From: Candidatus Epulonipiscium fishelsonii
GTDB lineage: Bacteria > Bacillota > Clostridia > Lachnospirales > Cellulosilyticaceae
Assembly: GCA_001983475.1 (NCBI GenBank)
Contig: LJHD01000038.1
Coordinates: forward strand, 1 to 51,626
Reading direction: 5' to 3'
Length of the DNA stretch: 51,626 nucleotides
Both the position numbers and the translations under genes were made by a program. Shown here in pieces: positions 7,098 to 51,626 of this stretch (its first letter is position 1; each line of letters opens with the position of its first letter). The notes beneath the pieces were generated by a model. The model saw only the letters and a list, made by a program, of their open reading frames with translations, was not told the DNA's origin and ran no database searches.

Positions 7098-7309
7098 AAA
7101 TGCCTCCTTTTTATGTAACAAATTATGATATAAAAATTTTTCATAATTATCATAAATCATGCAACTGAATTTTATAAGGGAGTAATTTATACCCCCTATA
7201 TAAACTTTTTATTACTTCTGTGACATGTCTAACTCTTCTTCAGGTTTATAATTTCTTTTAAAGCATTCATTTATTGCTCCAATGATTGAGGAAATAACAC
7301 CTAAAGCTT

Positions 7310-10410: not shown

Positions 10411-10500
10411 AAAAGTCCCCCATTCTTATAAATTTTGTGTCTTTAATACTGTTTGATACTTATCAAAAAAATTTAACGCTAATTGAAAAACTACCTTCAA

Positions 10501-10580
10501 AATAGTAACCGGACTTATAAGTTTGAAGGTTTTATAACTTCACTCCTGCACCACGACATTCAAATTTAGTTATTACTATA
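10501..10580 (+). repeat. Family-G MITE-like element (about 75-80 bp)
   Basis: AATAGTAACCGGACTTATAAGTTTGAAGG...CTCCTGCACC...TCAAATTTAGTTATTACTAT, with short terminal inverted repeats AATAGTA/TACTAT. Other copies at 41798-41878 (reverse), 42340-42402 and 47641-47714. Partial copies at 12749-12768, 5221-5265 and 51614-51626. Confidence 0.7.
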
Positions 10581-12913: not shown

Positions 12914-13729
12914 TTATGATACTTGCATTTCTAATCTTAATTTGTCTGCAATTAACGCTATAAATTCACTATTTGTTGGTTTTCCTTTTCCGTTATTTAC
13001 AGTGTATCCAAATAGTTTATCTATTGTGTCCATCTTTCCTCGACTCCAAGCAACTTCAATTGCATGTCTAATCGCTCTTTCAACTCTACTTGGTGTGGTG
13101 TTATATTGTTTTGCAATAGAAGGATAAAGTTGTTTTGTAATAGAATTTAAAATATCCATATCATTTATTGCCATAATAATTGCATCTCTTAAATATTGAT
13201 ATCCTTTAATATGAGCTGGAACCCCAATTTCATGAATTACACTGGTAACTTCTGTTTCTAATGTATGTTTAGTCATTGGAGATTTATAATGTGTAAGAAT
13301 TGATTCATGATTTAATATATTTTGGCTGGGTGAAAGTCTTGAACTATTAAAGTCATTTTTCAAATGTCTTATACGCATTACTAAAGTTTCCATATCGAAA
13401 GGTTTAACAATATAATACTCTGCTCCCAAACTTAAAGCTTGTTCAGTAATTCTATCTTGACCAACTGCAGAAAGCATAATTACCATTGGTCTTTTTTCAA
13501 GATTTATTGTTTTTAATTTTTCTAATACAGCTATTCCATCTAAATGTGGCATAATCACATCTAAAATCATAACATCAGGTTGTTTTTCTAATATTAACTC
13601 TACAGCTTCTTTTCCGTTTGAGGCAATACCTACAACTTCCATATCACCTTGCTTATCAATAAACACCTTTAAAATATCTCTAAAATCTCTATTGTCATCT
13701 GCCAATCCTATCTTAATTTTTGACTCCAT
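12914..13729 (-). CDS. spo0A: Sporulation master response regulator Spo0A
   Basis: Receiver domain (DVIMPHLDG) plus the Spo0A-specific C-terminal domain with [18 protein letters not shown] and [19 protein letters not shown]. Confidence 0.95.
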
Positions 13730-13845: not shown

Positions 13846-15081
13846 CTATTTTATATCAAGATTGATCATATTTTCTACAAATATTCCATATCCTTTTGTG
13901 GGGTCTTGAACAAACACATGACTTACTGCACCAATGAGTTTATCGTTTTGGATTATAGGACTTCCGCTCATTCCTTGAACAATTCCTTCGGTAAGATTTA
14001 ACAATTCTTGATCAACAATTTTAATAACCATTCCTTTAGAGGGCTCAGAAGTGTATTTTGCTACTTTTTGAATTTTAACTTTATACGAAGCGACACCATC
14101 TCCTTCTAAATCAGCTAAAATAAGGGCATCTCCTTCTTTAACTTCATTTTGGCAAGCAATGGGTATTGCTTCTTTTTTCATTTTATCTAAATCTTCCTTA
14201 TCAATCGTTCCAAAAATACCTCTTGCATTATTTTCTTCAATATCTCCAACATGTTCTCTTTCGTTAGTATTAATTACTCCACTAAGTTCTCCAGGGTCTC
14301 CAGCTTTTCCTTTTCTTATACTATCAATTTTAGCTGTCATAATACTACCTGTTGATATTGGAATAATTTTTTCAAATTCAGAATCTGTAATGCCATGTCC
14401 CAAAGCTCCAAAAGTGCTACTTTCTGGATCAATATATGTCAATGTTCCTAAACCTTGAATTGTATCCTTTATCCAAGCACCAATTTTATACGTGTTTTCT
14501 TCGTCACAATATCGGGGTAAAATTTTTGCCTCAATTGTCTTGTCATTACGCTTCACTTTTAAATTAATAAATTTTTCTTCATCTACTTCAATCACTTTTT
14601 TAAATTCTTCTTTTGAATTTATTTTTATTCCATTTACTTCTATAATTCGATCTCCTTTTTTTAAACTATCTTTACAAGGATTAACTTCCTTTCCATTTGA
14701 ATTAAAGCCACCTGTTCCAACAACACATATTCCTTCGGAATGCACTTCAATACCAATAATTTGTCCACCAGGGATAACTTCTTTGTATGGCATTGAAGAA
14801 ACAGCCACTGTTTTAAGGGGAATGCCTCCAAGAACAGACACCTCAAGTTCCGCTTTTCCTTCTTGTTCTAAAATTACAGACATCGGTTCCTTAATTTTTA
14901 TATTTTTTTTTGATGTTACCTGCACTGGCAAGGGTAAATTTAAATCTAAAGTTTGTTCTTCTCCAACTATAAGTTTAATCTCGTCTGGTACATTTGAATA
15001 GGATATCCCCAACAATCCAATTGGTAATATTATAATCATTAAGGTTAAGCAATACCAAAGAATTTTTACTAATTTCTGCAC
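13846..15081 (-). CDS. spoIVB: SpoIVB signalling serine peptidase (S55)
   Basis: N-terminal TM helix, PDZ-like region, GTLTYIDPESSTFGALGHGI and the catalytic-Ser region GMSGSPIIQNDKLIGAVSHV. Apparent GTG start. Confidence 0.9.
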   Translation of the reverse strand: MQKLVKILWYCLTLMIIILPIGLLGISYSNVPDEIKLIVGEEQTLDLNLPLPVQVTSKKNIKIKEPMSVILEQEGKAELEVSVLGGIPLKTVAVSSMPYKEVIPGGQIIGIEVHSEGICVVGTGGFNSNGKEVNPCKDSLKKGDRIIEVNGIKINSKEEFKKVIEVDEEKFINLKVKRNDKTIEAKILPRYCDEENTYKIGAWIKDTIQGLGTLTYIDPESSTFGALGHGITDSEFEKIIPISTGSIMTAKIDSIRKGKAGDPGELSGVINTNEREHVGDIEENNARGIFGTIDKEDLDKMKKEAIPIACQNEVKEGDALILADLEGDGVASYKVKIQKVAKYTSEPSKGMVIKIVDQELLNLTEGIVQGMSGSPIIQNDKLIGAVSHVFVQDPTKGYGIFVENMINLDIK

Positions 15082-15313
15082 ATAATCACATCCTGTCTAT
15101 TCTTTTAACTTGCTTATCTTTAAAGTTTCCTTTTTATATATTGTTTATGCAGTTTGAAAAGCGGTATTATTTACAAAAAAAATACCATATACCAAATTTG
15201 TTAAATGTTGACATACAGACTATAAACAAACCTCTACCAAATACCCCTTTAAACCCTCCATATTCAACTTTAGACATTTGGAGTATTACCGTTTTAATAT
15301 ATAACAACACAGC

Positions 15314-15354
15314 ATAAAAAAGCCCTCCTTATTAATTATTATAATGGAGGGCTT
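15314..15354 (-). terminator. Rho-independent terminator after the 1542-aa gene
   Basis: Minus-strand stem AAGCCCTCC / GGAGGGCTT, followed by TTTTTT. Confidence 0.7.
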
Positions 15355-15398
15355 AAACTATATAAAGTTAAATTTTTTCTTATTTCATATATTCCGTC

Positions 15399-18300
15399 TT
15401 ATTTTCCAGCCACTTCAAATTGTGGACCGTCATCTTCTTCCTCTTCTTCTTCTTCTACTTCAGGTTCCTCTTCTTCCTCTTCTTCTACTTCAGGTTCCTC
15501 TTCTTCCTCTTCTTCTACTTCAGGTTCTTCTTCTTCCTCTTCTTCTACTTCAGGTTCTTCTTCTTCCTCTTCTTCTACTTCAGGTTCCTCTTCTTCCTCT
15601 TCACGTTCTTCTTCTTCACGTTCTTGCTCTTCTCTTTCACGTTCCTCTTCTTCTTCTCTTTCACGTTCCTCTTCTTCTTCTCTTTCACGTTCTTCCTCTT
15701 CTTCTCTTTCACGTTCTTCCTCTTCTTCTCTTTCACGTTCTTCCTCTTCTTCTCTTTCGCGTTCTTCTTCAGACATCATTGAAATAGAAGGTATTGCAGG
15801 TACTTGCATATTCCATCCAGCATTTATTGATTGTGCACTTCTACCTTTTGTTCCAGCTTGAATAGCATTTTCAAAATCACCAATAGCACTTTCTAAAGCT
15901 ATTACCGCAGCATCTAACTCATCAGCAGTTTTATTTTTATCAGCTAAAACTTTTTTAGCATTACTAATAGCAGTACTCAATGCTGTAAAGGCACTGTCTG
16001 GAGCCCAATCATCACGTGGGTCAACATTTGCCCCATCTATACTTCTTATAATACCTCTTGTTGCGTCTCCTGCGTCATCAATTGCATCTTCTAAATCAGC
16101 TCTTGCTGCATCTACATCTTCTTTAGTTCCCTCTTGTGCTATGTCGTTAAATGCGGTTATTGCTGCCTCTAATGCAGATGTTTCAGCAATAATTGCCCCT
16201 GGTGTAACTGATTGTTCTTTATATAGATCATATGCTTTATCATAAGCCATATCTAAAGCCTTCAAAGGAGCTATTGATCCATCAGTAGTTGAATAAGGTA
16301 CCCATTTGTATCTGCTTGAAATATCTGTTCCACCATATCTACTTGTTTTTGTAGAAAGCAATGGTTTAACTAAATTTATTTGAGCTAACAAATCAACTTT
16401 TGCACTTACTGTCTCACCTTTTAATCCAGGTGCACATGCTGCTACAAATAAAGCTTGAGCACTTGTTAAAGAATCTTTAGAAGCTGTTAAGTCTGCTACT
16501 GTTGATTCTTCTTCTTCCCATACTTCCATTGCAACATCAAGTGAATCTTCAAATTTATCAAGATCTTTTGATGTACTCCATTGTAAAGACGCATCCACAT
16601 CTGTACCATTTACAGAGCTTTCTCTAAACGCAGTTGGAGCTATAAGAGCTTTTGAACTTGTAATCAAGGTACCTAAATCTGTATATAATTGGTCAAAGGT
16701 TTCTTTTGTTCCGTGACCGTTTCTGGTAGCAGCAGCGTTTATTGTTGCTGTCGCTGTAGCTAAAGTTGCTGTTGCTTTGGTTAAAGAAGCAGCATTTTTA
16801 GAGGAACTGATATATGCTTTTGCAGCTGTATCAATAGCTTTTTCATATGAACTAAATTGAGATGGTGTTACCCATAGGTTTGCCTCAACTACATCTGTTC
16901 CTGTTCCAAGTTCACTTTCGGAAATAATTGCAGATGGACTTGTAGCAGCACCAGTTCCCACTGTTTTAGATACATTAATTAATGCGTAAGCTGTATTAAC
17001 TGCTTCGCTTAATGCTGTTTCTGCAGGTATAAATGTTCCCAATCCCGCTTTTCTTACTGCTTCAAAATCTCTAAGTATTTCTTTTAGCTCTTCATTAGCT
17101 TCATCAATTTTTTCTTTTGTTGTTTTACCTTCTGCAGCCAAGTCTGCAACCGCTTGTGCTGCTTTGATTCCCGCTTCTAATTCTTCCATCATATCTTCAT
17201 CTACCCAGAATGCACCTGTTTCTACATCTTCACCTTTTAGTGCACTTACTGTAGTATAAGAACTTCCACTAGTAACATATGCTTGAGCTGAAGTAATAGT
17301 TGCAGTTATATCTGTAGTACCATCGCCTAGACCTAATTTAACTTTTGCAGTTTCTAGAATAACTACGTCTGTTGAAAGTGATCCATCAGTTGTTCCAAAA
17401 AACACTTTACTTGCTGCTTGTAATTCTTTTTCTGCATCTTTAATTTCATCTAGTTCTAATTTATATAATTTAGCTGTAGCTTCTTCTTTTTTAGCTGTAG
17501 CTACCGCAGATTTTACTTTACCTATATCAGATGAAAGTGCCCAATATTCAGCCTCTGCTACACCGACTCCACCCAAGGAATTCGCTGCAACACTAGTTAC
17601 ATTAGTTTCAATATTTTTTATTAATGTTGAAAAGCTTCCTGAAGTACTTACTAGTGCTTCAAATTCTGTTTGTTGCCCACTTGTTACTAATTTTTCAAAG
17701 GCAATTTTTTTAGTTGCTAATGTTGAAATTGCAGATTTTATTGATGTTAAATTTGCTTTAGGATTTGTATATACTTCAATTGCATCTTCAATTACATCGT
17801 TATAATCTTCAATATCATCTGGTTCTGCCCATTTTTTGGAATTTTCCACGTCAAATCCAAAGTGTTCATTTTCAAAATAAAGTTGAGTACCAGAAACTGT
17901 AGTTGCATAACTTCCTGTTGAAGTTATTTGTGGTCTTCCAATTGCATCTTTTTCAGCATTAATATTGTTAAGTAAAGTATCTTTGCTAGTTAAAAGCTCA
18001 CCTTTAGTAGTTGTTTCTTGAATGCCAAGTGTAAATGCTGATGTTGCTAAAGTTAAAGAATTTGTTGTTCTCTCTACAATAGCTTTGGTTGATGCTTTGT
18101 GATCTCTTACGTCTATAGCATCTTCGATTGCTTTTTTATAACTATCCATAGTGAATTTAGTTACCCATTCTATATTTGTATCAAGTTCAGCTCCATTTAC
18201 ACTTACTACTACAGAAGTGGTAGAATCAGTAGCTGCAACTATTTGATCATGTAAAACTTTTTTTATATTACTTATTGGTTCAGCGCTAATAGTTGTAAAG

Positions 18301-20027
18301 GTAGTTGTTGCATTTTCTATTTCTGCTTTTGCTGCTTGAATATCCTCTAATGGCATTATAGCTATTGATTTTAATGCTTCTGTTGCTACTTCAATTGCTT
18401 CTTCAAACATTTCTTGCTCTTCTTCAGTTACCCATTTTAATACATCTTCTGCTGGTGGATCAACTTTTGGATCTGTTAGCAAGTCTAATCCATCATATTC
18501 ACTAACTAAAATTTTCTTATTTGTTAAATTTTCTTTTGCTGCCTCAATTGCAGCTTCCAAAGCATCCCCTTCGGCACCAAATGTATCTTTAAGACCAGTT
18601 GATAAACCAGCCAATGTTGTTTGTAAAGCTGTTAAATTAGCTATTTCAATAGAAATTTGGGTTGTTGTTGCTTCTTTATCATCATAAACATCTTGAGCTG
18701 TTTCAATTATTCCTTTATAAATCTCATATGGTCCTTTTGTCGTCCACTTATCGCTAGAACTTACATCTGCACCATTTGCACTTAATTTTACCCCTTCAAA
18801 TATGTCTCTAGTCTCATCAAGTTCGGTTTCTAATTCTGCTTTAGCGGTTTTAATATCTGAAGCTGCTCCAGTTCCATTTGCAGCAATTGCATCTGTAAAA
18901 GCAGTAAGTGCAGTTTCTAAAGCTAAAGTCGCTCCTGATGTAATATCTACAGAGTTTGCTTTTGCTTCTTTAACTGTATCATGTTTTGAATATACGCTTT
19001 CTGCTACTTTAAGTGCTGATTCTAATGCCTTATACTGTTCTTCTGTTACCCAAGTAGTCCATGCATCCATTCCATCTTCACTTACCATTGGAGGATTTAC
19101 TTCTATTGGATCAGTTTCAACACCATTTGCTCTTTGAGGAGCTTCAACTGCTGGAGCGGAAGTACGTTCAGTTTGTGGAATTTCCGTTAAGTAAGCTTTA
19201 ACCTCTGATATTAAATTAAACATACCATCTTGAGCCACTACCAAAGTTCCTTGGCCAGATGTTATTTCAATTGCAAAATGTGAAGTTGCTGCACTTAATT
19301 CATTATAAGCATCTACTAAAAATTGTTCTGCTGGAACATCAGCAACCGTTGATATTGAAGCAAATGATACTGGATTAACTGGGGCATCTCCATAATTTAT
19401 TTTTTTAGACTTTTCATCGTATACATCTTGAGCTTCTTCAATTGCTTCTTCAAATGTATCCCATGCGTCTTGAGTTACCCATGTTTCACTAGTAGTAATT
19501 TCAATACCGCCAATTTCACTTATGTTTGGTGCTACTGGAGCTCCTTCACCAATACCAAGTAATCCTTTAGCCTCTGTTATTTTTTCATATAACTGATTCA
19601 CTGCGTTTTGGTATACATCATTTATTCCAGCTTTCTTTAAAGCCTCATATTTTGCAGTTAAATCTGTTAGTTCAGTGATTGCATCTTCAATCATTTCTAC
19701 AATTTCATTTACTGAATCATCATAATCTTCTTTGTCATCCATTGGAACCCAAAAATTAGTATTATTTATATCTGCTCCTTTTTCATCACTGCCCAAAACT
19801 TGGTCTCTTAATTCAATTGCTGTCACAAGCAAGGCATCAATTTCTACCGCTGCTGATGATACTGTTGCAATATCATAATTTCCCATTGGCGACATATATG
19901 ATGTCGCTCCCCCATTTCGTTGCATACTATACATCCCATACTCTGCTGCAGATGTTATAATTGGTGTTGTAGTAGCAATTGTTGCCAATGCTAATGCTAA
20001 TCTTTTTCTGAATTTGTTAATAGCCAT
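15399..20027 (-). CDS. Giant secreted repeat protein (1542 aa) with helical FIVAR-like modules and a C-terminal Glu/Arg low-complexity tail
   Basis: Signal-peptide-like N-terminus MAINKFRKRLALALATIATTTPIITSAAE. At least 13 modules of the type (G/A)xD(V/I)...W(V/A)Txxxxxx(F/Y)xxAIxxAxxVY. Tail (RER-EEEEE)n, then (PEVEEEEEEE)n, ending DDGPQFEVAGK. RBS CAGGGGGAAG. Confidence 0.85.
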   Translation of the reverse strand: MAINKFRKRLALALATIATTTPIITSAAEYGMYSMQRNGGATSYMSPMGNYDIATVSSAAVEIDALLVTAIELRDQVLGSDEKGADINNTNFWVPMDDKEDYDDSVNEIVEMIEDAITELTDLTAKYEALKKAGINDVYQNAVNQLYEKITEAKGLLGIGEGAPVAPNISEIGGIEITTSETWVTQDAWDTFEEAIEEAQDVYDEKSKKINYGDAPVNPVSFASISTVADVPAEQFLVDAYNELSAATSHFAIEITSGQGTLVVAQDGMFNLISEVKAYLTEIPQTERTSAPAVEAPQRANGVETDPIEVNPPMVSEDGMDAWTTWVTEEQYKALESALKVAESVYSKHDTVKEAKANSVDITSGATLALETALTAFTDAIAANGTGAASDIKTAKAELETELDETRDIFEGVKLSANGADVSSSDKWTTKGPYEIYKGIIETAQDVYDDKEATTTQISIEIANLTALQTTLAGLSTGLKDTFGAEGDALEAAIEAAKENLTNKKILVSEYDGLDLLTDPKVDPPAEDVLKWVTEEEQEMFEEAIEVATEALKSIAIMPLEDIQAAKAEIENATTTFTTISAEPISNIKKVLHDQIVAATDSTTSVVVSVNGAELDTNIEWVTKFTMDSYKKAIEDAIDVRDHKASTKAIVERTTNSLTLATSAFTLGIQETTTKGELLTSKDTLLNNINAEKDAIGRPQITSTGSYATTVSGTQLYFENEHFGFDVENSKKWAEPDDIEDYNDVIEDAIEVYTNPKANLTSIKSAISTLATKKIAFEKLVTSGQQTEFEALVSTSGSFSTLIKNIETNVTSVAANSLGGVGVAEAEYWALSSDIGKVKSAVATAKKEEATAKLYKLELDEIKDAEKELQAASKVFFGTTDGSLSTDVVILETAKVKLGLGDGTTDITATITSAQAYVTSGSSYTTVSALKGEDVETGAFWVDEDMMEELEAGIKAAQAVADLAAEGKTTKEKIDEANEELKEILRDFEAVRKAGLGTFIPAETALSEAVNTAYALINVSKTVGTGAATSPSAIISESELGTGTDVVEANLWVTPSQFSSYEKAIDTAAKAYISSSKNAASLTKATATLATATATINAAATRNGHGTKETFDQLYTDLGTLITSSKALIAPTAFRESSVNGTDVDASLQWSTSKDLDKFEDSLDVAMEVWEEEESTVADLTASKDSLTSAQALFVAACAPGLKGETVSAKVDLLAQINLVKPLLSTKTSRYGGTDISSRYKWVPYSTTDGSIAPLKALDMAYDKAYDLYKEQSVTPGAIIAETSALEAAITAFNDIAQEGTKEDVDAARADLEDAIDDAGDATRGIIRSIDGANVDPRDDWAPDSAFTALSTAISNAKKVLADKNKTADELDAAVIALESAIGDFENAIQAGTKGRSAQSINAGWNMQVPAIPSISMMSEEEREREEEEEREREEEEEREREEEEEREREEEEEREREEEEEREREEQEREEEEREEEEEEPEVEEEEEEEPEVEEEEEEEPEVEEEEEEEPEVEEEEEEEPEVEEEEEEEDDGPQFEVAGK
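15420..15775 (-). repeat. In-frame coding tandem repeats (30-nt PEVEEEEEEE units and 24-nt REREEEEE units)
   Basis: Direct tandem periodicity is visible in the DNA. The plus-strand ORFs 15344-15787 and 15420-15782 are mirror artefacts of this tract. Confidence 0.9.
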
Positions 20028-20070
20028 TCAACTTCCCCCTGTTTTTCAAATTTTTTACTCTACAATATAT

Positions 20071-20097
20071 ATATCGTTTAATTTTTAATAACATTTA
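20071..20097 (-). promoter_or_regulatory. Sigma-D/FliA-like promoter candidate for the 1542-aa gene
   Basis: The minus strand reads TAAA-TGTTATTAAAAATTAAA-CGATAT. This gives the spacing of the Bacillus sigma-D consensus TAAA-N15-GCCGATAT, and it lies about 45 nt upstream of the ATG. Confidence 0.4.
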
Positions 20098-20402
20098 TAT
20101 AACATTTTTCATATATTTTTTTTTGCATTAATAGTTGTTTTTGGATTTATATCCTGATATATATAAATTAGTTTCATATTTTGCTATAAATTAGTCAAAT
20201 TAATTATATATTTTTAGGATATAAAAAAAATTTATATCGAGCAAAATGTTTTAATCAATAAAAATTAAATCTCTACTAAATTGTTAAATAGATAAATCTC
20301 TAATTTCTCATAATTTATAAACACAACTTTTAATGGTTTCCCTACACCTAAATGCTTTTATAAAAGAAAATAATGGCTCAATTGCAACTCTATAAAAAAA
20401 TG

Positions 20403-20439
20403 AAAAAAAATACTAGAGATTTTTAAAAAATCCCTAGTA
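20403..20439 (-). terminator. Rho-independent terminator after the 2000-aa gene
   Basis: Minus-strand stem TACTAGGGATTTTT / AAAAATCTCTAGTA (one mismatch), followed by a T8 run. Confidence 0.65.
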
Positions 20440-20521
20440 TTAATTCAATATTTAGATTAAAATAAATTTAATTTCCTGCCATTTCAAATTGAGGCCCATC
20501 ATCTTCCTCTTCTTCCTCTTC

Positions 20522-20965
20522 TTATACTACAGGTTCTTCCTCCTCTTCTTCTTCTTCTACTTCAGGTTCTTCCTCCTCTTCTTCTTCCTCTTCTTCAGGT
20601 TCATCTTCCTCTTCTACTTCTTCCTCTTCTTCAGCCTCTTCACGTTCTTGTTCTTCTCGTTCTTGCTCTTCTCGCTCTTGTTCTTCTCGTTCTTGTTCTT
20701 CTCGTTCTTGCTCTTCTCGTTCTTGTTCTTCTCGTTCTTGCTCTTCTCGTTCTTGTTCTTCTCGCTCTTGTTCTTCTCGTTCTTGCTCTTCTCGCTCTTG
20801 TTCTTCTCGTTCTTGCTCTTCTCGTTCTTGTTCTTCTCGCTCTTGTTCTTCTCGTTCTTGCTCTTCTCGTTCTTGCTCTTCTCGTTCACGTTCCTCTTCT
20901 TCACGTTCCTCTTCTTCTCGTTCCTCTTCTTCTCGTTCCTCTTCTTCACGTTCTCGTTCTTCTTC
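20522..20965 (-). repeat. In-frame coding tandem repeats (15-nt REEQE units and E-rich units)
   Basis: CTCTTCTCGTTCTTG-type 15-nt periodicity. ORFs 20489-21019(+) and 20614-20949(-) are frame or mirror artefacts. Confidence 0.9.
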
Positions 20966-23900
20966 AGATGTTATTGCAAATATAGAACTATCTCCAATAG
21001 GCTCTCCATCCATTATTAATGCAGAAATATCTAAGATTGAATCTTCAAACGGATCATTTCCTGACGTAGGTTCCGTATCAGTTCTTCCAGAGTGATATTC
21101 AAACCATTGAGTTGCATTATAAAGAACACTTCTTATCCCAGCAGTAGTAGTTGTTGAACCAATAGCCTCATATCTTTTGCCAAGTACAGCTGCTGTTGGT
21201 TTGCTTTCTGTCACAGTACCATCATTATTAGGAGTATACATTGTTCCTTCTACAGATGCATATCTATTGATATAAACAGCATTTGCTTGATCAATTATTT
21301 CTTCAAAGTCTCTAATTGCAAACGGAGATAGATAATATTTGCCATCTTCTTTACCACTAATACTTGTGCTTGAAATAGTGTAACGTAACAATAACTTAGC
21401 TGCATCCATTTCTTTTTTCAAATCAGCTTTTGCTAAAAGTGTGTCTTCTTTATTTCCTTTATAAGCATAGGCATCAACTTCGTCTATTAAAAGTTTTAAA
21501 TCATTTGTTACTTTTAGCAATTCTTGTTCAGCATAAGCTCCCTTTCTAGCTCTGCTCATTGAATTTGCTATGTTATATGCCGCACTGATTTCTTCTATTA
21601 TTGTTTTTCCACTTGCTCTATCTAAACTACTTACCAAGGTATGAGTATTTGAAACATCTGATCCAGTCCCTAGTGGTGTTATTTTTATCATAGCCATAGT
21701 GTTTTTTGCCCTTGCTACCAAGCTATTTAATGCTGCTATAGTTCCATCTATATCTGTTGCTCCAGCAGTATAATATTGTGGTGCATAATCTCCCCTATCT
21801 GCATAGTCTCCATCAGCATTTGCATCAAGACCAACAAATTTGTCGTTTGCTAATTTTAAAGCAGTAATTGCTTTTTCTAAGTTAATTTGTGTAATATCAA
21901 TATCTGAAAATGCTTTCATTGCAGCATTAATTGCATTTGTAAATGTAGCAGTGTTAGATTTAGATGCCCAAGCTGTTCCAGCATCTACATCAGTTCCTTT
22001 TAGATCACTAATTTGGAATGTTGTTCCACCATCACTAATGTCAAACCCAGTACCATCTGCATTAATAGCTGCTATTTTTCCAATTAATGCATGTGAATCT
22101 ATAATTAAAGTACTAATAGTAGTTCTTAAACCATCAAGATTATCTTTAGTTCCTGCTCCAGATTTTATCCCTGCTGCAAGCCAAGTTGCAATGTTCTTTT
22201 CAAGAGTTTCAATATATTTACCCATAACAGTTAAATCATAACTTGGATTTGAGTAATATCCTCTGTGTAATTTAAGAGTATTTTCCATTCCACTAAATAC
22301 CGCAGCACTCATCCATAAATACTTACCTTCAACGTCAACTCCGTTGTTATAAACACTTTTTCTAATACCTTCCATTGCAGCAGGTATTTTATCTTTAATT
22401 TCCTGTGTAATAAAGTCTTTATCAGCAAATGCTAATTGTAAATCTGTAATTGCTGTTCCAGCTACAGTGGTAAAGTCTGTAGAAGAATCAATTACATCAT
22501 AATTTGGTAATCCAACAATATCATTCACAAAGTTCATTAACGTAATATACTCTGTTTTCACTGGTGCAAGTAAATCTGATCCATTCATAGCAATATCAAT
22601 ATATTGTTTGAACACGTCTACAGCTTTTTGTAAGTTTACTTGAGCTGTGTTAAAGTATGACATATTGAACATTCCTGCTGGTACATATGTTGGAAGTAAT
22701 AATCCACCAGTTGTACTTCCTGTATATCTAAGCAATAAAGCTTCTGCTGTTTCAATTGCTTTTTTGAATGCATCATAATACTTAGCATCAACCCATTTAT
22801 CTCCTGCGGCAACATCTTGACCGTTTATTGCACTACGTTTAACAGTTAAAAGAAGTGCATTTGCAGCTTCAACGTCTAACACTAGTGCATCGTCTTCTCT
22901 TTCTTTAAATCCTTTTTGAAGTTTTCCTACAACCTCTGGTGTGTCACCTGAAGCTGGTACTCCAAAGAAAATATCATATGCTGCTTTGAAAGTATCATAT
23001 GCTGCTTTAAATTGATCATGAGTTAATTTATTTATTGCTTCATTTTTAAGTGCAAGGTCAGCGGCTTTAATTGCGTTATTTATAGCACCAATTGAAGCTG
23101 CATCAGTCCAATCCACAGTGTTCTCAATATCTGCTCCGTAGTATCTTGATATTAAAATTTTGTATCCTTTACCCCAAATAATGTTAGCTGGATCATTATA
23201 TACAGCTGTTGCTGCAGTATTATATAAAGTTTCAAATTCTGTTCTTAATGTTGCTGCAGATGTTGCTCCAACAGCTGTCTTAGCTGTTAAATCTAAGAAC
23301 TTAGTAATCTCTGTTTGTAAAGTAACAATTGCTTTTGATATAGTCGCATCTGTTGGTCTTGTAGATTTCCAAGCAGTTTCTGCAACTGCAATTTTTGATA
23401 TGAATGTTCTCATTTCAGCTTCTGTTACCCATTTATCTCCTGCATTTAAAGGTTCTTGAGTAGTAATTTCTACACCATTAGAATCAGTGGTAACTGCAAG
23501 TTTATTTTTACCATTGTCTATACTTGTATAAACAGAAGTTGTTACTTCTGGAGTTTTATCATCAATATATTCAACATCTAAATGAGTATTTCCTATAATA
23601 AGAGCTTTTGCTTCATTTACTTTATCTGATAATTCATTCATTTTTGGAACAAGTGTACCAACACCAGGTGCAGTTATAAATTTAGATTTTGCTAATTCAA
23701 GATCTATAATTGCTTTTTCAACAGTTCCACTTTTTTCAGCTGGACCAGGATATATTTTTTGATTGTTTAATGCAACAATAGCTTTATCAACTGCTGAGTC
23801 AAATGCAGCTTTAACTGCAGGTGTTGCCCAAAATTCATCAGGTTTAACTTCAACTCCACCTACATTACTTACTTTAGTATTTCTTAATTCACTAGCATAT

Positions 23901-26524
23901 CCACTATTTCCATCTTCTCCATAAATTAAGTTAAATAATCTAGATTTAACATCAGTTGGAGTTTTTGCTGCACTGTTAAAGGCAATAACTGCTGCATTTA
24001 ATGCTTCCATTGCTCTTTCAACTTCACTTGGTAAAGTAGTATTTCCTACTCCAAGTTTTTCATTTTTAAATTCTTGTGCAACAAATATAGCATCAATTAA
24101 AGCTTGCATATTGTCTTTAGAAATATATTTCACTGAATCTGTTGTTACCTCATAAGTTTTTATTGAACCTGTTGTTGTTCCGTCAATATTAGTTACTGTT
24201 GTTGTTGTTGTAAGTAGGTCCAGACCTTCATATATGCTAATTGAAGCTGTTGTTGTTAGAGCCATTGCTTTCTCAAGTAAAGCATTAAATTCAGTTGTAT
24301 CTTCCTCTTTTCCTTCTGAGCCTGAACTCATATAAGATTGTTTAAATTCGCTAGTTGCAGCATATAATTCTTTTGCTTTTTGTTCAATATATTTTAATCT
24401 GTCTTTATACTCAAAAGGTTCCCCTGATGGTAAAATTTGATTTTCAATGTAAAGTGGAGTTGTAACTTCTTGGTCTTTAATCTCTTCAATTGCTTGAACT
24501 ATTTCAACATAAGCTTTATAAGTTTCTGTAGCCACCCATTGTGATGGAGACGTTACATCTGCACCTTCAATTGAGCTTGGTTTTACTGTAAATGTTGAAT
24601 CATCTGTTGGTCCAGATAATACACCATTTTCAACTTTAGCATCACCAATTTCAGCTCTTGCTGCAGCAACTACGCTTAACAAGCCTTTAGATTTTAAATC
24701 CGTCTCTACACCCATTACTTCTGCATAATCTTCTTTAAAGCCTTCTTCTATTTTAGTCGCGAACTCTAGTGTTGCATTTTCAATAGCTATAACACCATTT
24801 TCATAATCTAATAAATCATGTGCACCAGTTGTTGCATCATAAAGAGTTTTAGCTGATGTAATAGCTGTATCCAATTTAGTCCAATCTATTGTTGATACCC
24901 ACATATAAGCTTCTGAAGTTTGTGTACCATGCTTATCATCTTGTTGTACTACAAGACTTATATCAGCATTTGCAACTCCACTAGTTGTGTATCCTCTTTC
25001 CAGTTGAGCCTCAAAGATAGCTTTTTGTAATTTTTCTTTTTCTTCAATAATTTCAGGCATTTGCCCTTCTTCATAAGAATCAATAAATTTATTTAATGCT
25101 CTTTTAAGAATATTAATTGCTTTATCAATAGTCTCGGTTGTTTCATGACTTGTTTCACTTTCATCAGTTGGAGCAAAAACTCCATCAACTATACCGTCAT
25201 TAGCCTCAAAAGCAGCTTCAGCTATAGCTACAGCGGCCGTTAAAATATCTACATCTGCTGTAGTTACCCAAGAAGCCCACAAATCTCTTCCTTCAATATC
25301 ACTTACTAAAACATGAGTAACAGTTGCTGTTGTAACACCTTCAGGGAAAGTATCGTCTTCTTCTTTAGCCAAATAATATTCATTGTTTGGATCAATATAA
25401 TAAGGATGGCCACTTGTGTTATATAAAAATCTTGTATTATCTTCATCAGTATCCTCGGTAATAGTAAGATCCGCAGTTGTAACATTATCTATCCATTCTT
25501 TATTAGCTGTTGTAACATTTAAGTGTATATTTGAAACGTCTATTAAACTTTCAAGTCCTTCTCTTGCAATAACAATTTCACCATCTTGCATTTGTCCAGC
25601 AAATGCATCTTTAAATGCCAAAGCAGCACCAATTGCAGTATCCACTGTGTTTGCTACATATGTATCACCAGATGTTTGGACTCCATATAAATTATTAGCC
25701 ATTTCAAGAATTTTTTCTCTAGAGATATCAGGATTCGCTACAGGTATGCTTCTTGCTATTAATCCAGGTGAAGTTGACCTATATACTTTAGTTAAATAGT
25801 CTTTTGCTTCATCAATTGCCACTTTAAATGCATCATAATCTGCTTTGCTTATCCAACCTTTACCTTTTTCAACATCTTTTCCATCAGTTGAACTTATCAT
25901 ATATTCGCCATTTGTTGTTGCTTGTGTAATAGCTGATTCTGTTGTTGCAATAAGTTCTTCTGCTGCAAGTATAGCTCTATATAATCCATCAACATGTCCT
26001 TGATATGATACAGAGATACCTGTTGTACGACTTAATTCAGTGGTAATTGGAGTAATTGCTGCATTTACTGCTGTCATATCCATTCCTATTGTTTCATCTG
26101 ATCCTTGAACAATAGAAGCTCTTGTTGTACTTACGTCTGAATCTGCATAGTTATTATTTAATTTAATCAATGCATTTTGAGCAGCTTCAATGATAGCTAA
26201 AAGTTCTGTAACTTTTGAATCATATGTAGTTTTCATTTCTGTAGTGGTCCAATGATATGCTTGATCTGTTGCTTTTCCATCAACATCTGAACCATCGCTA
26301 TCACTTGCAATTGTACCTCCTACCAAATTATGTGCATTAATAATTGCATCTTCTAAGTGGCCAAAATCATAAGTAGTAATCTCCGTTATATCTGTTATAT
26401 CTGTATGTTCCTGAGTAATATTAAAATCATGATTAAATTGTTCAGCCGACACCATTATCGGTGTTGCACTAGTTATCATTGCCATAGCTAGTGACAATCT
26501 TCTACTAAATTTTTTGTTTGCCAT
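20522..26524 (-). CDS. Giant secreted repeat protein (about 2000 aa), paralog of 15399-20027, with a C-terminal Glu/Arg/Gln low-complexity tail
   Basis: Start moved to ATG 26524 (MANKKFSRRLSLAMAMITSATPIMVSAEQ) behind CAGGGGGAAG, the same RBS context as the paralog. It has the same W-x-T...F-x-x-A-I modules. Tail (EEEER)n, then (EQERE)n for about 20 units, then EEEEEPEV-type units. Confidence 0.85.
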   Translation of the reverse strand: MANKKFSRRLSLAMAMITSATPIMVSAEQFNHDFNITQEHTDITDITEITTYDFGHLEDAIINAHNLVGGTIASDSDGSDVDGKATDQAYHWTTTEMKTTYDSKVTELLAIIEAAQNALIKLNNNYADSDVSTTRASIVQGSDETIGMDMTAVNAAITPITTELSRTTGISVSYQGHVDGLYRAILAAEELIATTESAITQATTNGEYMISSTDGKDVEKGKGWISKADYDAFKVAIDEAKDYLTKVYRSTSPGLIARSIPVANPDISREKILEMANNLYGVQTSGDTYVANTVDTAIGAALAFKDAFAGQMQDGEIVIAREGLESLIDVSNIHLNVTTANKEWIDNVTTADLTITEDTDEDNTRFLYNTSGHPYYIDPNNEYYLAKEEDDTFPEGVTTATVTHVLVSDIEGRDLWASWVTTADVDILTAAVAIAEAAFEANDGIVDGVFAPTDESETSHETTETIDKAINILKRALNKFIDSYEEGQMPEIIEEKEKLQKAIFEAQLERGYTTSGVANADISLVVQQDDKHGTQTSEAYMWVSTIDWTKLDTAITSAKTLYDATTGAHDLLDYENGVIAIENATLEFATKIEEGFKEDYAEVMGVETDLKSKGLLSVVAAARAEIGDAKVENGVLSGPTDDSTFTVKPSSIEGADVTSPSQWVATETYKAYVEIVQAIEEIKDQEVTTPLYIENQILPSGEPFEYKDRLKYIEQKAKELYAATSEFKQSYMSSGSEGKEEDTTEFNALLEKAMALTTTASISIYEGLDLLTTTTTVTNIDGTTTGSIKTYEVTTDSVKYISKDNMQALIDAIFVAQEFKNEKLGVGNTTLPSEVERAMEALNAAVIAFNSAAKTPTDVKSRLFNLIYGEDGNSGYASELRNTKVSNVGGVEVKPDEFWATPAVKAAFDSAVDKAIVALNNQKIYPGPAEKSGTVEKAIIDLELAKSKFITAPGVGTLVPKMNELSDKVNEAKALIIGNTHLDVEYIDDKTPEVTTSVYTSIDNGKNKLAVTTDSNGVEITTQEPLNAGDKWVTEAEMRTFISKIAVAETAWKSTRPTDATISKAIVTLQTEITKFLDLTAKTAVGATSAATLRTEFETLYNTAATAVYNDPANIIWGKGYKILISRYYGADIENTVDWTDAASIGAINNAIKAADLALKNEAINKLTHDQFKAAYDTFKAAYDIFFGVPASGDTPEVVGKLQKGFKEREDDALVLDVEAANALLLTVKRSAINGQDVAAGDKWVDAKYYDAFKKAIETAEALLLRYTGSTTGGLLLPTYVPAGMFNMSYFNTAQVNLQKAVDVFKQYIDIAMNGSDLLAPVKTEYITLMNFVNDIVGLPNYDVIDSSTDFTTVAGTAITDLQLAFADKDFITQEIKDKIPAAMEGIRKSVYNNGVDVEGKYLWMSAAVFSGMENTLKLHRGYYSNPSYDLTVMGKYIETLEKNIATWLAAGIKSGAGTKDNLDGLRTTISTLIIDSHALIGKIAAINADGTGFDISDGGTTFQISDLKGTDVDAGTAWASKSNTATFTNAINAAMKAFSDIDITQINLEKAITALKLANDKFVGLDANADGDYADRGDYAPQYYTAGATDIDGTIAALNSLVARAKNTMAMIKITPLGTGSDVSNTHTLVSSLDRASGKTIIEEISAAYNIANSMSRARKGAYAEQELLKVTNDLKLLIDEVDAYAYKGNKEDTLLAKADLKKEMDAAKLLLRYTISSTSISGKEDGKYYLSPFAIRDFEEIIDQANAVYINRYASVEGTMYTPNNDGTVTESKPTAAVLGKRYEAIGSTTTTAGIRSVLYNATQWFEYHSGRTDTEPTSGNDPFEDSILDISALIMDGEPIGDSSIFAITSEEEREREEEEREEEEREEEEREEEEREREEQEREEQEREEQEREEQEREEQEREEQEREEQEREEQEREEQEREEQEREEQEREEQEREEQEREEQEREEQEREEQEREEAEEEEEVEEEDEPEEEEEEEEEEPEVEEEEEEEEPVV

Positions 26525-26577
26525 TTTATCTTCCCCCTGATAGTAATTTCTTCCATAATAATTTCTTAACAAGAAGT

Positions 26578-26604
26578 ATATCGTCATTTTTTTTTATTAT
26601 TTTA
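26578..26604 (-). promoter_or_regulatory. Sigma-D/FliA-like promoter candidate for the 2000-aa gene
   Basis: The minus strand reads TAAA-ATAATAAAAAAAAATGA-CGATAT, the same TAAA-N17-CGATAT architecture as at 20071-20097. The -10 region GACGATAT matches GCCGATAT at 7 of 8 positions. Confidence 0.4.
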
Positions 26605-26808
26605 TATTATATTTTTCACAAATTTATTTTTGGTTTAATGTTTAAATTCATGCTTTAATACCAATCTTTATAAGTTTGTCTTATATTTTTATATTTTTAA
26701 TTAGATTAGTTGTACATTTTTATTATATAAAAAAAAGTAATATCATGTAAAAATAATATTATATAAAACGATATAACAAAAAAAATAATATTATATAAAA
26801 TGATATAA

Positions 26809-26847
26809 CAAAAAAAGTAATATCATATAAAATTACATGATATTACT
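26809..26847 (-). terminator. Rho-independent terminator after the TDT transporter gene
   Basis: Minus-strand stem AGTAATATCAT / ATGATATTACT, followed by a T-run. Confidence 0.6.
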
Positions 26848-26904: not shown

Positions 26905-27858
26905 CTAAAGCGATGAGGTTCTACTATTTTTTATGCTATTTAATAGAAGAGATGCAAATTTAAACACTACAAATCCAATTATTGCTGTTGTAAAATAAAT
27001 TTGTATTCCAAAGATTTGTGTTACAATCTCACTTAAGTCTTCATATCCTTTTGTCATCAAAAATCCAGCCATTTTATTAGAGGCAACACAAGCAATTGCT
27101 AGCGGGAATGTAAGTCCAGCAAATCCAGGATGAAATTCAAAAGAAAAGAACTTTGGTAAGTTAATTAAAATATATATCAATGTAATTAAAAGTACCACAT
27201 ACATAATATAAAGTAAAAGCGACCAAGGATTTTTAAATACATTTATACAACTTACAATAAAAAGGCTCGATGGTGCTGCCAAAATTGCTTTTGTCATAAA
27301 CAGCGGACCAGTTGTGATTGGATAATTTTTTAAACGATATACCATCATTGGTAAAACAATAAACGCAGGAATAAACCCATAACATACTACAAGAACACTA
27401 ATAAATGGTTCATTCATTGGTCCACCTACAACTGTTGCTACCATAATGCCCGCAAGAGTTACAAACCAACTTGGTACAAAATTATCTATATTAAAATTTT
27501 TATATACATTTTTATATACAAAATAAATTAAATGTATTGTATGTAGAGCTAATCCAGTTGCCCATATGGCTTTTCCTACAGTTGGGTAAAATTCAAAAAT
27601 ATAACTCCCAACAATCATAGTTAACATGGTAAATCCCGCATATAAACTTGCTGGTACAACTGCAGAATACTCAGTTTGTATAGTTTTAAAGTGACAAATA
27701 ACTTTTGCAATATAAAAAAGTAATACTATTATACTTGCCCACATACAAATGTGTCTAATTATAGAATAACCCATAATTGTCCAAACATTGGATAGCGTTG
27801 CTAAACCAACCATAGTTGGTAACAATGGAACAGGTATATTTTTTAGTTTTTTTATCAT
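26905..27858 (-). CDS. TDT (TehA/Mae1, SLAC1-like) family anion/dicarboxylate transporter
   Basis: About 10 TM helices. N-terminal KNIPVPLLPTMVGLATLSNVW. Clear paralog of 42461-43423. Confidence 0.7.
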   Translation of the reverse strand: MIKKLKNIPVPLLPTMVGLATLSNVWTIMGYSIIRHICMWASIIVLLFYIAKVICHFKTIQTEYSAVVPASLYAGFTMLTMIVGSYIFEFYPTVGKAIWATGLALHTIHLIYFVYKNVYKNFNIDNFVPSWFVTLAGIMVATVVGGPMNEPFISVLVVCYGFIPAFIVLPMMVYRLKNYPITTGPLFMTKAILAAPSSLFIVSCINVFKNPWSLLLYIMYVVLLITLIYILINLPKFFSFEFHPGFAGLTFPLAIACVASNKMAGFLMTKGYEDLSEIVTQIFGIQIYFTTAIIGFVVFKFASLLLNSIKNSRTSSL

Positions 27859-37016: not shown

Positions 37017-37039
37017 AAGGGTGAATACTGTTCACCCTT
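37017..37039. terminator. Bidirectional hairpin between convergent genes
   Basis: Stem AAGGGTGAA / TTCACCCTT. It overlaps the uvrB stop codon. Confidence 0.5.
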
Positions 37040-51408: not shown

Positions 51409-51626
51409 ATAATCCTCCATTTATGTACTTTTTGTAAAGGCCTGTATTATTAGGCTCTATTACATAATATTTTGACAGCTTGTATAATTATTACTGGTTT
51501 CACTTAAAAAAAAGTTTGCAACATATATTCTCATTTCAAATGAGAGAAAAGACCAAAGTTTTTTTCTATTATCATGAATAACCAGTTATGCTAGGTAAAT
51601 ATTTTTTTGTAAGACGGACTTATAAG

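Follow-up and report, generated by a model that had tools for sequence, protein, structure and literature searches.

Paralogous giant FIVAR-like repeat proteins with polyanionic tails, putative surface fibres of the Epulopiscium group

Two giant genes and their surroundings

In the window (the whole stretch of 51,626 nucleotides that was analysed), two adjoining minus-strand genes, here called A and B, encode giant proteins composed of a signal peptide, a long array of helical modules, a linker and an acidic tail (Table 1). The B reading frame is open as far as position 26587, and its start was set at 26524 on the evidence of the RBS and of homologues. The two proteins align at 22% identity over 1095 amino acids (E 8e-23), N-termini included, and on sequence comparison they are distant paralogs. 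Both N-termini have the make-up of Sec-type signal peptides, from which we infer cleavage and export of both proteins. A preliminary description, drawn from the letters of the DNA, had pointed to two adjoining giant minus-strand genes with homologous signal-peptide-like N-termini and an identical RBS context; all of these were recovered, and the homology extends through the 5' regions for about 190 nt (71% identity over 188 nt). The 5' region of A also contains a conserved box, ACGATATA..TTGT, which is present in Epulopiscium Nuni2H.

The same description had placed the pair upstream of spoIVB and spo0A. Both of these genes do lie downstream, and the position of the giant genes next to them is conserved in E. 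fishelsonii. Given that each giant gene has its own terminator, this adjacency provides no functional link, and an operon with spoIVB was rejected on that ground.

Table 1. Coordinates of the features of genes A and B and of their downstream neighbours
Feature	Position	Strand	Description and basis
A 5' region	20062..20246	-	Homologous to B 5' region; sequence alignment
A RBS core	20032..20041	-	CAGGGGGAAG
Gene A	15399..20027	-	1542 aa: signal peptide, 13 FIVAR-like modules, linker, acidic tail, terminal motif; ORF, NCBI protein P0154
A signal peptide	19947..20027	-	MAINKFRKRLALALATIATTTPIITSA, predicted cleavage before AE; basic n-region, hydrophobic core, small-x-small site; read from sequence, aligns with B N-terminus
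A module array	15828..19868	-	13 FIVAR-like three-helix modules, aa 54-1400; module HMM, AlphaFold2, PDB profile search
A linker	15774..15827	-	INAGWNMQVPAIPSISMM; predicted disordered, AlphaFold2 pLDDT 34-39
A Glu/Arg segment	15585..15773	-	(REREEEEE)n, aa 1419-1481; AlphaFold2 helix
A Pro-punctuated segment	15435..15584	-	(PEVEEEEEEE)x5, aa 1482-1531; predicted disordered, pLDDT about 40
A C-terminal peptide	15402..15434	-	DDGPQFEVAGK, conserved
A terminator-like hairpin	15316..15354	-	Followed by T-run; read from sequence
B 5' region	26569..26752	-	Homologous to A 5' region; contains promoter-like TTTACA-18-TATAAT at 26722-26751
B RBS core	26530..26539	-	CAGGGGGAAG, 10 nt, identical to A core
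Gene B	20522..26524	-	2000 aa: signal peptide, 14 FIVAR-like modules, linker, acidic tail; ORF, P0003
B signal peptide	26444..26524	-	MANKKFSRRLSLAMAMITSATPIMVSA, predicted cleavage before EQ; sequence reading and alignment with A
B module array	21050..26422	-	14 FIVAR-like modules, aa 35-1825; module HMM
B linker	20969..21049	-	Last module to tail
B Glu/Arg/Gln segment	20636..20968	-	(REEEE)n then (REEQE)x16
B Pro/Val-punctuated poly-Glu end	20525..20635	-	…PEVEEEEEEEEPVV
B stop and in-frame remnant	20468..20524	-	TAA at 20522-20524, then EEEEEEDDGPQFEMAGN-stop (20468-20521); conserved family C-terminus after premature stop
B terminator-like hairpin	20409..20441	-	15 bp stem and T-run
spoIVB	13846-15081		Downstream of the giant genes
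spo0A	12914-13729		Downstream of the giant genes

Repeat modules, acidic tails and the family

A module HMM seeded on the G-x-D-[VI]...W motif defined and aligned 27 modules of about 100 amino acids, which are recognised in A and B with E-values of 1e-7 to 1e-22 per module and cover about 87-90% of the proteins. For a single module AlphaFold2 returned a confident helical bundle in the order helix, loop, helix, helix (pLDDT 95.3, pTM 0.85); for three modules the pLDDT remained above 85, with a pTM of 0.49 that leaves their relative orientation undefined. Against the PDB, the module profile matches S. aureus EbhA (2dgj, E 1.2e-5) and the FIVAR domain of C. perfringens NagH (2jnk/2ozn, E 1.7e-3), with Embp (6gv8) following at E 0.074. 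FIVAR is also the only Pfam family matched by several modules, weakly and in 5 of the 27 (best E 2.7e-5). Searches with the full-length proteins gave nothing over the cut-off in Pfam or NCBIfam (for FIVAR, PF07554, 17.6 bits and E 0.006 in A and no match in B, against a gathering score of 29.2 bits), and phmmer of both bodies against PDB sequences gave 0 matches. The more distant of the proteins found by the profile, for example P0007, P0012, P0021 and P0028 (87-215 bits, P0007 reaching 215), pass PF07554 at the matched positions, and the best Foldseek matches are FIVAR or three-helix surface proteins, none with E below 1e-3: NagH 2ozn_B, with the best single-module coverage (TMq 0.54), EngBF, Embp and EndoE. 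By profile homology, the modules of A and B are divergent FIVAR repeats. The earlier suggestion of a dozen or more FIVAR-type modules, for which profile and structure prediction on a single module had been recommended, is thus borne out, with 13 and 14 modules tiling the two proteins.

Like Ebh of S. aureus and Embp of S. epidermidis, A and B are very large acidic proteins, predicted to leave the cell by the Sec route, that have few cysteines or none at all and are built nearly throughout from FIVAR-type three-helix bundles in tandem; the profile also matches fragments of these two staphylococcal proteins. A and B differ from them in being 5-7 times smaller, in lacking the YSIRK-G/S motif (their N-termini begin MAINKFRKRLALALA... 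and MANKKFSRRLSLAMA...), GA modules, DUF1542 (Pfam) and a C-terminal transmembrane anchor, in the form of the modules, which at about 100 aa have an extra N-terminal helix and a long loop with the G-x-D-V...W motif, and in ending with a poly-Glu/Arg tail and a conserved terminal peptide. The likeness to the FIVAR-dockerin structures of NagH takes in the G-x-[DN]-V loop and both helices that follow it. In NagH, EngBF and EndoE, however, which are clostridial or enterococcal glycoside hydrolases, a single accessory FIVAR module stands beside a catalytic domain, whereas A and B are all modules and have no enzyme domain.

The tails, described earlier as nearly pure glutamate and about 125-145 residues long, comprise 124 residues in A (88 Glu, 14 Arg, net charge -75, or -0.60 per residue) and 148 in B, or 165 with the post-stop remnant (106 Glu, 23 Arg, net -86 over the 165 residues, or -0.52 per residue); the fraction of charged residues is 0.80-0.85. 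Among the repeat units reported for them, REREEEEE and PEVEEEEEEE stand at five exact copies each, while the roughly 20 copies claimed for REEQE come to 16 exact ones and are reached only if close variants are counted. Purines make up 86% of the tails' coding strand, which is built of 15-, 24- and 30-nt units of high identity, homogenised within each array, with a period of 30 nt in A (96% matches) and of 15 nt in B (86% matches, 21 copies). AlphaFold2 models residues 1420-1479 of A as one 60-residue helix (pLDDT 95-98); confident as this prediction is, a net charge of -0.5 to -0.6 per residue speaks against the stability of such a helix in isolation. Past 370-450 nt of repeats the reading frame arrives at a terminal peptide conserved in the family, DDGPQFE(V/M)AG. 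In B this peptide is encoded in frame directly beyond the TAA, so that '...EEPVV' is not the natural end of the protein, and the premature stop would be either a nonsense change (CCT GTA GTA TAA against an expected CCT GAA GTA GAA) or a sequencing error. Neither the terminal peptide nor the premature stop figures in the preliminary description. A degenerate DNA scan of JGI metagenomes for the terminal motif gave no match.

In staphylococcal Clf/Sdr proteins, which have Ser-Asp (SD) repeat stalks, and in LPXTG proteins with a Pro-rich region that spans the wall, what comes after the segment is a signal for sortase anchoring: LPXTG, then a transmembrane helix, then a basic tail. Like those segments, the A and B tails are long, low-complexity, acidic or Pro-punctuated C-terminal segments, putatively wall-proximal; unlike the Clf/Sdr stalks, they are made of Glu/Arg instead of Ser-Asp and lead to no LPXTG, transmembrane helix or basic tail. 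With ER/K single alpha-helix (SAH) domains they share a content of 80-85% charged residues, an Arg every 4-5 residues among Glu and, in A, a predicted lone long helix, but their charges are unbalanced (-0.60 per residue in A, -0.52 in B) and their setting is bacterial and putatively extracellular, so that the likeness is an analogy with no sign of homology. By analogy alone, PEVEEEEEEE resembles the E-rich, Pro-punctuated entropic-spring motifs of titin PEVK poly-E segments.

Close relatives of A and B were found only in Epulopiscium-group genomes, those of giant Clostridia of the surgeonfish gut, a restriction of which the preliminary description says nothing. A word-indexed homology search, which returned just 2 relatives for each query, underestimates the family; an exhaustive module-profile search found 2295 cluster representatives. 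A scan of a genome collection produced one true relative, and loci in Gaiellaceae (L005) and Oscillibacter (L006) were spurious and were ignored. The homologues are all annotated 'hypothetical protein', in keeping with the earlier view of the architecture as uncharacterised. B is 57% identical to P0004 of E. fishelsonii, and its body has a dN/dS of 0.54 at the same dS as spoIVB and spo0A (dN/dS 0.06-0.08; neighbours overall 0.06-0.15), which suggests the fast evolution of a surface protein. In other Epulopiscium genomes the paralogs occupy unrelated gene contexts. Sannino et al. (2023, PMC10756260) described large secreted proteins of Ca. Epulopiscium viviparus as lacking recognisable domains and as rich in Ala, Thr, Asp and Glu; the module profile matches one protein of this species, WP_010165964.1 (3238 aa), which thereby belongs to the same family and which fits that description, and the sections of the article consulted make no mention of the FIVAR nature of the repeats. 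The E. viviparus members cluster side by side in the genome, are about twice as long as A and B, and have acidic tails of the EEQFEE... type that finish with a short basic amphipathic peptide, ...NLFKRS, instead of DDGPQFE(V/M)AG.

The survey of homologues that had been proposed for the tail found it again in P0010, which comes from a second assembly of the same species, is 97% identical to A and has slightly different repeat numbers, and in two E. fishelsonii single-cell assemblies, where it is identical. Recurrence in independent assemblies, together with the E. fishelsonii orthologue, indicates that the tails are not assembly artefacts, the prospect that the preliminary description had named as fatal to its proposal. 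The junction ...PS(I/M)MSEEE at the A linker is likewise common to the E. fishelsonii orthologue, and the REEQE peptide pattern is kept across species while its Arg codon is not (CGA in 16/16 units here, CGT in E. fishelsonii). Acidic tails of unrelated sequence are present in 10 of the 19 paralogs with an Epulopiscium-type signal peptide and in 5 further profile matches without such an N-terminus, and in none of the other approximately 131 FIVAR-type matches; those of other paralogs are not GAA repeats (for example DEVIADE... and EEQFEE...). By these comparisons the tail is genuine and under selection. A homologue that is 32% identical to B, P0001/P0002, has a real stop right past its last module and no tail. 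Over the terminal peptide, 38/39 nt of the A coding DNA are the same as in the 3' end of the E. fishelsonii gene, and in that species recombination through the tails appears to have fused an A-type 3' end onto a B-type body.

Attachment and competing explanations

Searches of A and B against Pfam and NCBIfam found no SLH, CWB2, LysM, GW or other anchor domain, a regular-expression search found no LPXTG-like motif, and neither protein has a second hydrophobic or transmembrane segment beyond the signal peptide. The preliminary description had likewise seen no SLH, LPXTG or CWB2; an SLH domain is detectable elsewhere in the window, in a 973-aa ORF at 48499-51420. A sortase- or exosortase-type sorting signal was rejected because no transmembrane helix follows the terminal motif, a lipoprotein because there is no lipobox Cys, and recognition of the C-terminal peptide by the SpoIVB PDZ as speculative, the terminal residue not being hydrophobic. 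The further proposal of an anchoring role for the polyanionic tail itself is conjectural: P0001/P0002 does without a tail and the peptide of B is cut off by a stop, so that tail and peptide are not indispensable anchors for every member. Without cations to bridge them, a polyanion and the anionic polymers of the wall should also repel each other.

It is possible, although we consider it doubtful, that A and B act as multivalent adhesins like Embp, in which the FIVAR rods would be the working part and would hold on to mucus or matrix of the host, or to particles of algal polysaccharide, in the manner of Velcro, with the tail as a mere spacer and with either an uncleaved N-terminal signal-anchor or release from the cell. 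The homology of the modules to Ebh and Embp FIVAR, the binding of fibronectin by Embp F and FG repeats (PMC7587433, PMC9302970), the company of FIVAR modules with the glycoside hydrolases NagH, EngBF and EndoE, and a fast-evolving body that would suit a host- or ligand-facing surface are all consistent with such a role. The proteins have no ligand-binding domain besides the repeats, however; Epulopiscium cells are described as fast free swimmers and not as attached (PMC10756260); the signal peptide offers a favourable small-x-small site for cleavage; and the clade specificity of the acidic tails would be left unexplained.

The DNA of the tails invites another explanation, in which slippage and recombination expand GAA-rich polypurine repeats at gene 3' ends, and the tails arise as a side effect, have no function at the protein level and are tolerated because they lie at the C-terminus. 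The purine bias, the highly identical units homogenised within each array, the difference in repeat number between two assemblies of the same species and the apparent recombination through the tail in E. fishelsonii would all follow, and repeat blocks inside giant genes are reported across Epulopiscium genomes (PMC10756260). We nevertheless think this account unlikely, as every period is divisible by 3 and the reading frame is preserved as far as the conserved terminal peptide, the peptide pattern is conserved between species despite different codons, and other paralogs have acidic tails that are not GAA-derived. A role in the envelope of sporulation-derived offspring, with a functional tie to spoIVB-spo0A, has the conserved position in E. 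fishelsonii in its favour and is very improbable given the separate promoter region and terminator of each giant gene, the unrelated contexts of the paralogs in other Epulopiscium genomes and the lack of similarity to spore coat or cortex proteins in Pfam and NCBIfam. That the E/R tracts or the whole genes are artefacts of amplified single-cell genomes is barely credible: related records are indeed named as whole-genome-amplified single-cell assemblies, repeat counts differ slightly between A and P0010, and other genes in the window are interrupted (among them an ABC exporter with two in-frame stops), but the same tail architecture occurs in four independent assemblies of two species, identically in two, and both ORFs run uninterrupted, for 4.6 and 6.0 kb.

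A probable polyanionic surface fibre and its significance

We favour the reading, to which we assign a probability of roughly 0.6, that A and B form rod-like fibres at the cell surface, polyanionic and of the Ebh/Embp type, with the charged tail and the terminal peptide in place of the usual anchor. The repeats of Ebh and Embp are rod-shaped (PMC7587433), and by analogy, at about 3.5 nm per bundle, the module array would form a semi-rigid rod of about 45-50 nm. Beyond it would come a charged helical stalk of Glu and Arg, about 9 nm long in A; that of B could reach about 17 nm, provided that the unmodelled E/R segment of B is helical too. Next would come a Pro-punctuated poly-Glu spring and finally the terminal peptide. 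This C-terminal end may stand in for a conventional anchor by keeping the rod at the envelope non-covalently, whether through divalent-cation bridges to wall polymers or by the terminal peptide docking onto a partner. The outcome would be a dense, hydrated, strongly negative fibrillar coat with a net charge of about -200 per molecule. Since the FIVAR rods of Embp bind ligands multivalently, such a coat may, by analogy, bind glycans or host material as well.

Rather improbable, in our estimation, is the bolder proposal that the tail and terminal peptide constitute a new module for surface attachment or function: a gene-templated poly-alpha-glutamate 'brush', docked through DDGPQFE(V/M)AG or cation bridges, forming a polyanionic coat that would concentrate Na+, Mg2+ and Ca2+ at the envelope. 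The brush would be analogous to a poly-gamma-glutamate capsule, but encoded by a gene. The bioenergetics and motility of Epulopiscium have been proposed to depend on a sodium motive force (PMC10756260), in which light a coat that concentrates cations could be relevant. On the same proposal, recombination between tails would also shuffle whole paralogs, as in the chimera of a B body and an A end in E. fishelsonii.

Returning to the fibre reading, the analysis assigns a FIVAR fold and an Ebh/Embp rod analogue to a clade-specific family, and proposes two candidate replacements for an anchor, namely a selected poly-Glu/Arg tail and a conserved terminal peptide. This is an advance at the level of annotation rather than a demonstrated mechanism. 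Epulopiscium species are among the largest bacteria and are unculturable, and to our knowledge almost nothing is known about their envelope proteins. Finally, if the tail binds cations or wall polymers, proteins would be displayed at the surface in a new way, and polyglutamate capsules would have a counterpart encoded as protein.

The gene pair and its surroundings

The two long minus-strand reading frames reported in the preliminary description, here called A and B, are both present in the window, and the spoIVB and spo0A genes said to adjoin them are both found downstream of A. The start of B is set at the ATG given in the table because of the position of the ribosome-binding site and the agreement of all homologues. 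That A and B are paralogs holds at a considerable distance, with BLASTP identity of 22% over 1095 aa (E 8e-23) and N-termini that align separately; their common ribosome-binding context was likewise recovered, as the 10-nt core CAGGGGGAAG preceding both start codons. Some 35 nt ahead of the ribosome-binding site, both 5' regions carry a conserved box, ACGATATA(Y)(W)T(M)TTGT. It recurs upstream of a paralog in Epulopiscium Nuni2H (locus L003, about 1900-1950) and may be a promoter or leader element common to the three genes. A and B are each followed by a hairpin and T-run of their own. The AT-rich region upstream of B holds a tandem repeat reminiscent of the repeat blocks found between genes in E. 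viviparus (PMC10756260), and one of two SLAC1/TehA-type anion-channel paralogs lies directly upstream of B.

Elsewhere in the window, uvrB is interrupted by a group I intron (gathering score for RF00028, 50), and its exons when joined give an intact 660-aa UvrB, ...NANGKVIM running into YADKITRSM... at the junction. The intron contains no homing-endonuclease-sized ORF, and it was missed by the whole-window Rfam scan under default filters. Group I introns are uncommon in bacterial chromosomal protein genes.

Features of the window, with the matching segment of E. fishelsonii SCG-B11WGA-EpuloA1 (L004)
Feature	Position	Strand	Remarks
ABC exporter, split	5284-7160	minus	membrane domain 5997-7160, ATPase domain 5284-5865
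A 3' end and spacer	15388-15783 and 15082-15398		compared with L004 9656-10228
Gene A	15399-20027	minus	ORF, 1542 aa
Gene B	start ATG at 26524	minus	MANKKF..., 2000 aa; ORF itself extends to 26587
5' regions of A and B	20062-20246 and 26569-26752	minus	71% identity over 188 nt
Tandem repeat	26749-26832		32-nt unit, 2.6 copies, 94% matches
SLAC1/TehA-type paralog	26905-27858	minus	
SLAC1/TehA-type paralog	42461-43423	plus	
WG-repeat protein	32218-34011	minus	597 aa, 14 WG_beta_rep repeats (Pfam PF14903, 445 bits)
uvrB exons	37831-39473 and 37038-37377	minus	interrupted by group I intron
Group I intron	37378-37830	minus	453 nt; Rfam RF00028, 65.6 bits, E 2.7e-16
SLH-domain ORF	48499-51420	minus	973 aa; SLH match 37.5 bits; Ig-like or MG2-like stretches

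The repeat modules and their known counterparts

Although they stay below Pfam's own threshold for the family, the modules in A and B are FIVAR domains of a divergent and extended form. An HMM seeded with the G-x-D-[VI]...W motif and then iterated tiles 13 modules of about 100 aa onto A and 14 onto B, in line with the dozen or more originally counted. Pfam and NCBIfam scans of both proteins gave nothing above cut-off, FIVAR at 17.6 bits being the sole hint; across the 27 modules, it is the only Pfam family to match more than one. Searched against PDB sequences, the 27-module profile matched S. aureus EbhA (2dgj, E 1.2e-5), the C. perfringens NagH FIVAR-dockerin pair (2jnk/2ozn, E 1.7e-3) and Embp (6gv8, E 0.074), and against 1.84 billion cluster representatives it found 2295 proteins at E <= 1e-3, with 158 at E <= 1e-30. 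The best matches whose source was looked up all come from Epulopiscium genomes, while more remote matches exceed the Pfam FIVAR cut-off where the profile aligns, one of them combining SLH, Big_2 and FIVAR. AlphaFold2, given an alignment of the 27 paralogous modules, models a single module with pLDDT 95.3 and pTM 0.85. One short helix comes first and two long helices last; the long loop between them contains two short strands and the G-x-D-V...W motif. The top Foldseek matches (NagH, EngBF, Embp, Ebh, EndoE, CAMP factors and Fap1, none at E < 1e-3) are FIVAR-bearing or three-helix surface proteins. Taken together, these results uphold the FIVAR-type resemblance first guessed from the motif.

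Ebh and Embp are the closest characterised proteins. Like A and B, they are giant, acidic secreted proteins of repetitive build, with modules of the same type. Unlike them, A and B have no YSIRK, GA modules, DUF1542 or transmembrane anchor, and they possess a Glu/Arg tail that Ebh and Embp do not. A purely adhesive role of the Embp kind is unlikely. Large secreted proteins of E. viviparus (genes over 9 kb) are described in the accessible part of PMC10756260 as having no discernible domains and as enriched in Ala, Thr, Asp and Glu, a description that applies to WP_010165964.1 (3238 aa), a member of the family; that part of the source mentions neither the FIVAR assignment nor a tail-plus-peptide module.

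Acidic tails and the terminal peptide

The extreme Glu/Arg composition noted for the C-termini is borne out. The tail of A has 88 Glu and 14 Arg in 124 aa (net charge -75), and that of B is 148 aa long, or 165 aa with a 17-residue remnant after its stop, in which form it holds 106 Glu and 23 Arg (net charge -86). The repeat motifs also stand, at five exact units each of REREEEEE and PEVEEEEEEE and 16 of REEQE, or about 20 of the last with close variants; the DNA periods are 30 and 15 nt. What the preliminary description overlooked is a terminal peptide, DDGPQFE(V/M)AG, following the tail. By sequence comparison it is conserved in the A/B family, because it recurs at the end of A (...EEEDDGPQFEVAGK), at the end of the E. 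fishelsonii orthologue of B (...EEEDDGPQFEMAGDK) and in frame after the TAA of B (20522-20524), as EEEEEEDDGPQFEMAGN before a second stop. The stop site of B reads CCT GTA GTA TAA in place of the CCT GAA GTA GAA expected from the repeat, and B in the window may have lost the peptide through a premature stop. Real mutation and sequence error both stand as its cause, because the same contig carries an ABC exporter with two consecutive in-frame stops between its membrane and ATPase domains (between ...FTRNI and KTIKGDVTF...), itself a pseudogene or the product of a sequence error.

The tail is under selection at the protein level, because every repeat period is divisible by 3, because the frame is kept across 370-450 nt to the terminal peptide, and because the REEQE pattern is kept between species while its Arg codon differs (CGA in 16/16 units of B, CGT in all E. 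fishelsonii units). The codon pattern indicates concerted evolution within each array, with the peptide pattern constant. That expansion of polypurine repeats produced the tail as a tolerated by-product, as its repetitive DNA might suggest, is on this evidence distinctly doubtful.

A C-terminus was counted as acidic if its final 100 residues held 30 or more Asp or Glu. Such C-termini characterise the Epulopiscium clade: among the best 150 profile matches they occur in 10 of the 19 paralogs with an Epulopiscium-type signal peptide, in 5 more without that N-terminal signature (including P0010, a fragment of A from a second assembly, and one E. viviparus protein) and in none of the remaining ~131. 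Their sequences vary, from DEVIADE... in Nuni2H to EEQFEE... in E. viviparus, where a basic ...NLFKRS end comes after it. The Nuni2H gene upstream of the giant pair (L003 2-1462) ends in short repeats rich in Asn and Gln (NQENANHENAN..., QTEQTQQTEQ), a further low-complexity C-terminal tail in the group. In an AlphaFold2 run on the last three modules and tail of A, the modules exceed pLDDT 85, the linker is disordered, (REREEEEE)n forms a single 60-residue helix (pLDDT 95-98), and (PEVEEEEEEE)n with the terminal peptide is disordered (about 40). The helix is a prediction, not a finding, because true ER/K single helices are balanced in charge and the tail, at a net -0.5 to -0.6 per residue, is nowhere near that.

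Evolution of the locus and proposed attachment to the cell

Among 5.8 billion clustered proteins, close relatives occur only in Candidatus Epulonipiscium fishelsonii, and a genome-collection scan recovered L004, whose spoIVB and spo0A are ~90% identical to those of the window in DNA and 91.5% and 94% in protein. The window therefore belongs to a sister species of E. fishelsonii, among the giant Clostridia of the surgeonfish gut. Compared with E. fishelsonii, the body of B has a dS of 0.56, on a par with spoIVB (0.58) and spo0A (0.43), and a dN of 0.30, against 0.03-0.04 for the two sporulation genes; the dN/dS ratios are 0.54 and 0.06-0.08, with 0.15 for the neighbouring ABC ATPase. The rate of B is typical of exposed scaffold proteins constrained in the bundle core only. 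A link of the pair to sporulation, whatever its neighbours, is very improbable.

E. fishelsonii has one giant gene at this locus, with a B-like body (57% identical) and a last 39 coding nt identical at 38 positions to the 3' end of A, its orthologous counterpart; its spacer matches that downstream of A at 94% over 127 nt. A B-like body with an A-like end and spacer therefore points to recombination within the tail repeats, which either deleted the end of B, the spacer and the body of A in E. fishelsonii or inserted A in the window, so that a whole 5-kb paralog was lost or gained. No orthologue of A was found elsewhere in the databases. Paralogs are tandem or clustered also in Nuni2H and E. viviparus. 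In the latter (L007, ABEQ01000004.1, 1-29717) three giants of >2889, 3238 and >3324 aa have between them stretches of some ten ORFs each, 40-200 aa long and without Pfam match, which correspond to the 'islands of repeats with small ORFs' of PMC10756260. Downstream of its ABC genes, L004 carries two further genes (14881-16974; 347 and 335 aa) that are missing from the equivalent position of the window (about 10428-10575). That the tracts or genes are assembly artefacts can practically be set aside: P0010, 97% identical to A, shares the tail of A apart from small differences in repeat number, and identical tails occur in two independent E. fishelsonii single-cell assemblies.

A and B carry a Sec-type signal peptide and a FIVAR array, have a whole-protein net charge of about -200, and yielded no known anchor. 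The SLH-domain ORF indicates that SLH-type wall anchoring exists in the organism; A and B make no use of it. Both would be exported with cleavage of the signal peptide, and the module array would form a rod about 45-50 nm long, on the model of the Ebh and Embp repeats, which are rod-shaped (PMC7587433). The C-terminal stalk and terminal peptide might then provide non-covalent attachment or act as a spacer, and the outcome would be a fibrillar coat of negative charge. As for the proposal that the polyanionic tail is itself the functional or anchoring element, a role as sole anchor is disfavoured because a homologue 32% identical to B (P0001/P0002) is tail-less, ending at a real stop, and because B is without the terminal peptide. 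The interest of the family would be greater should the tail prove a new attachment or cation-binding device.
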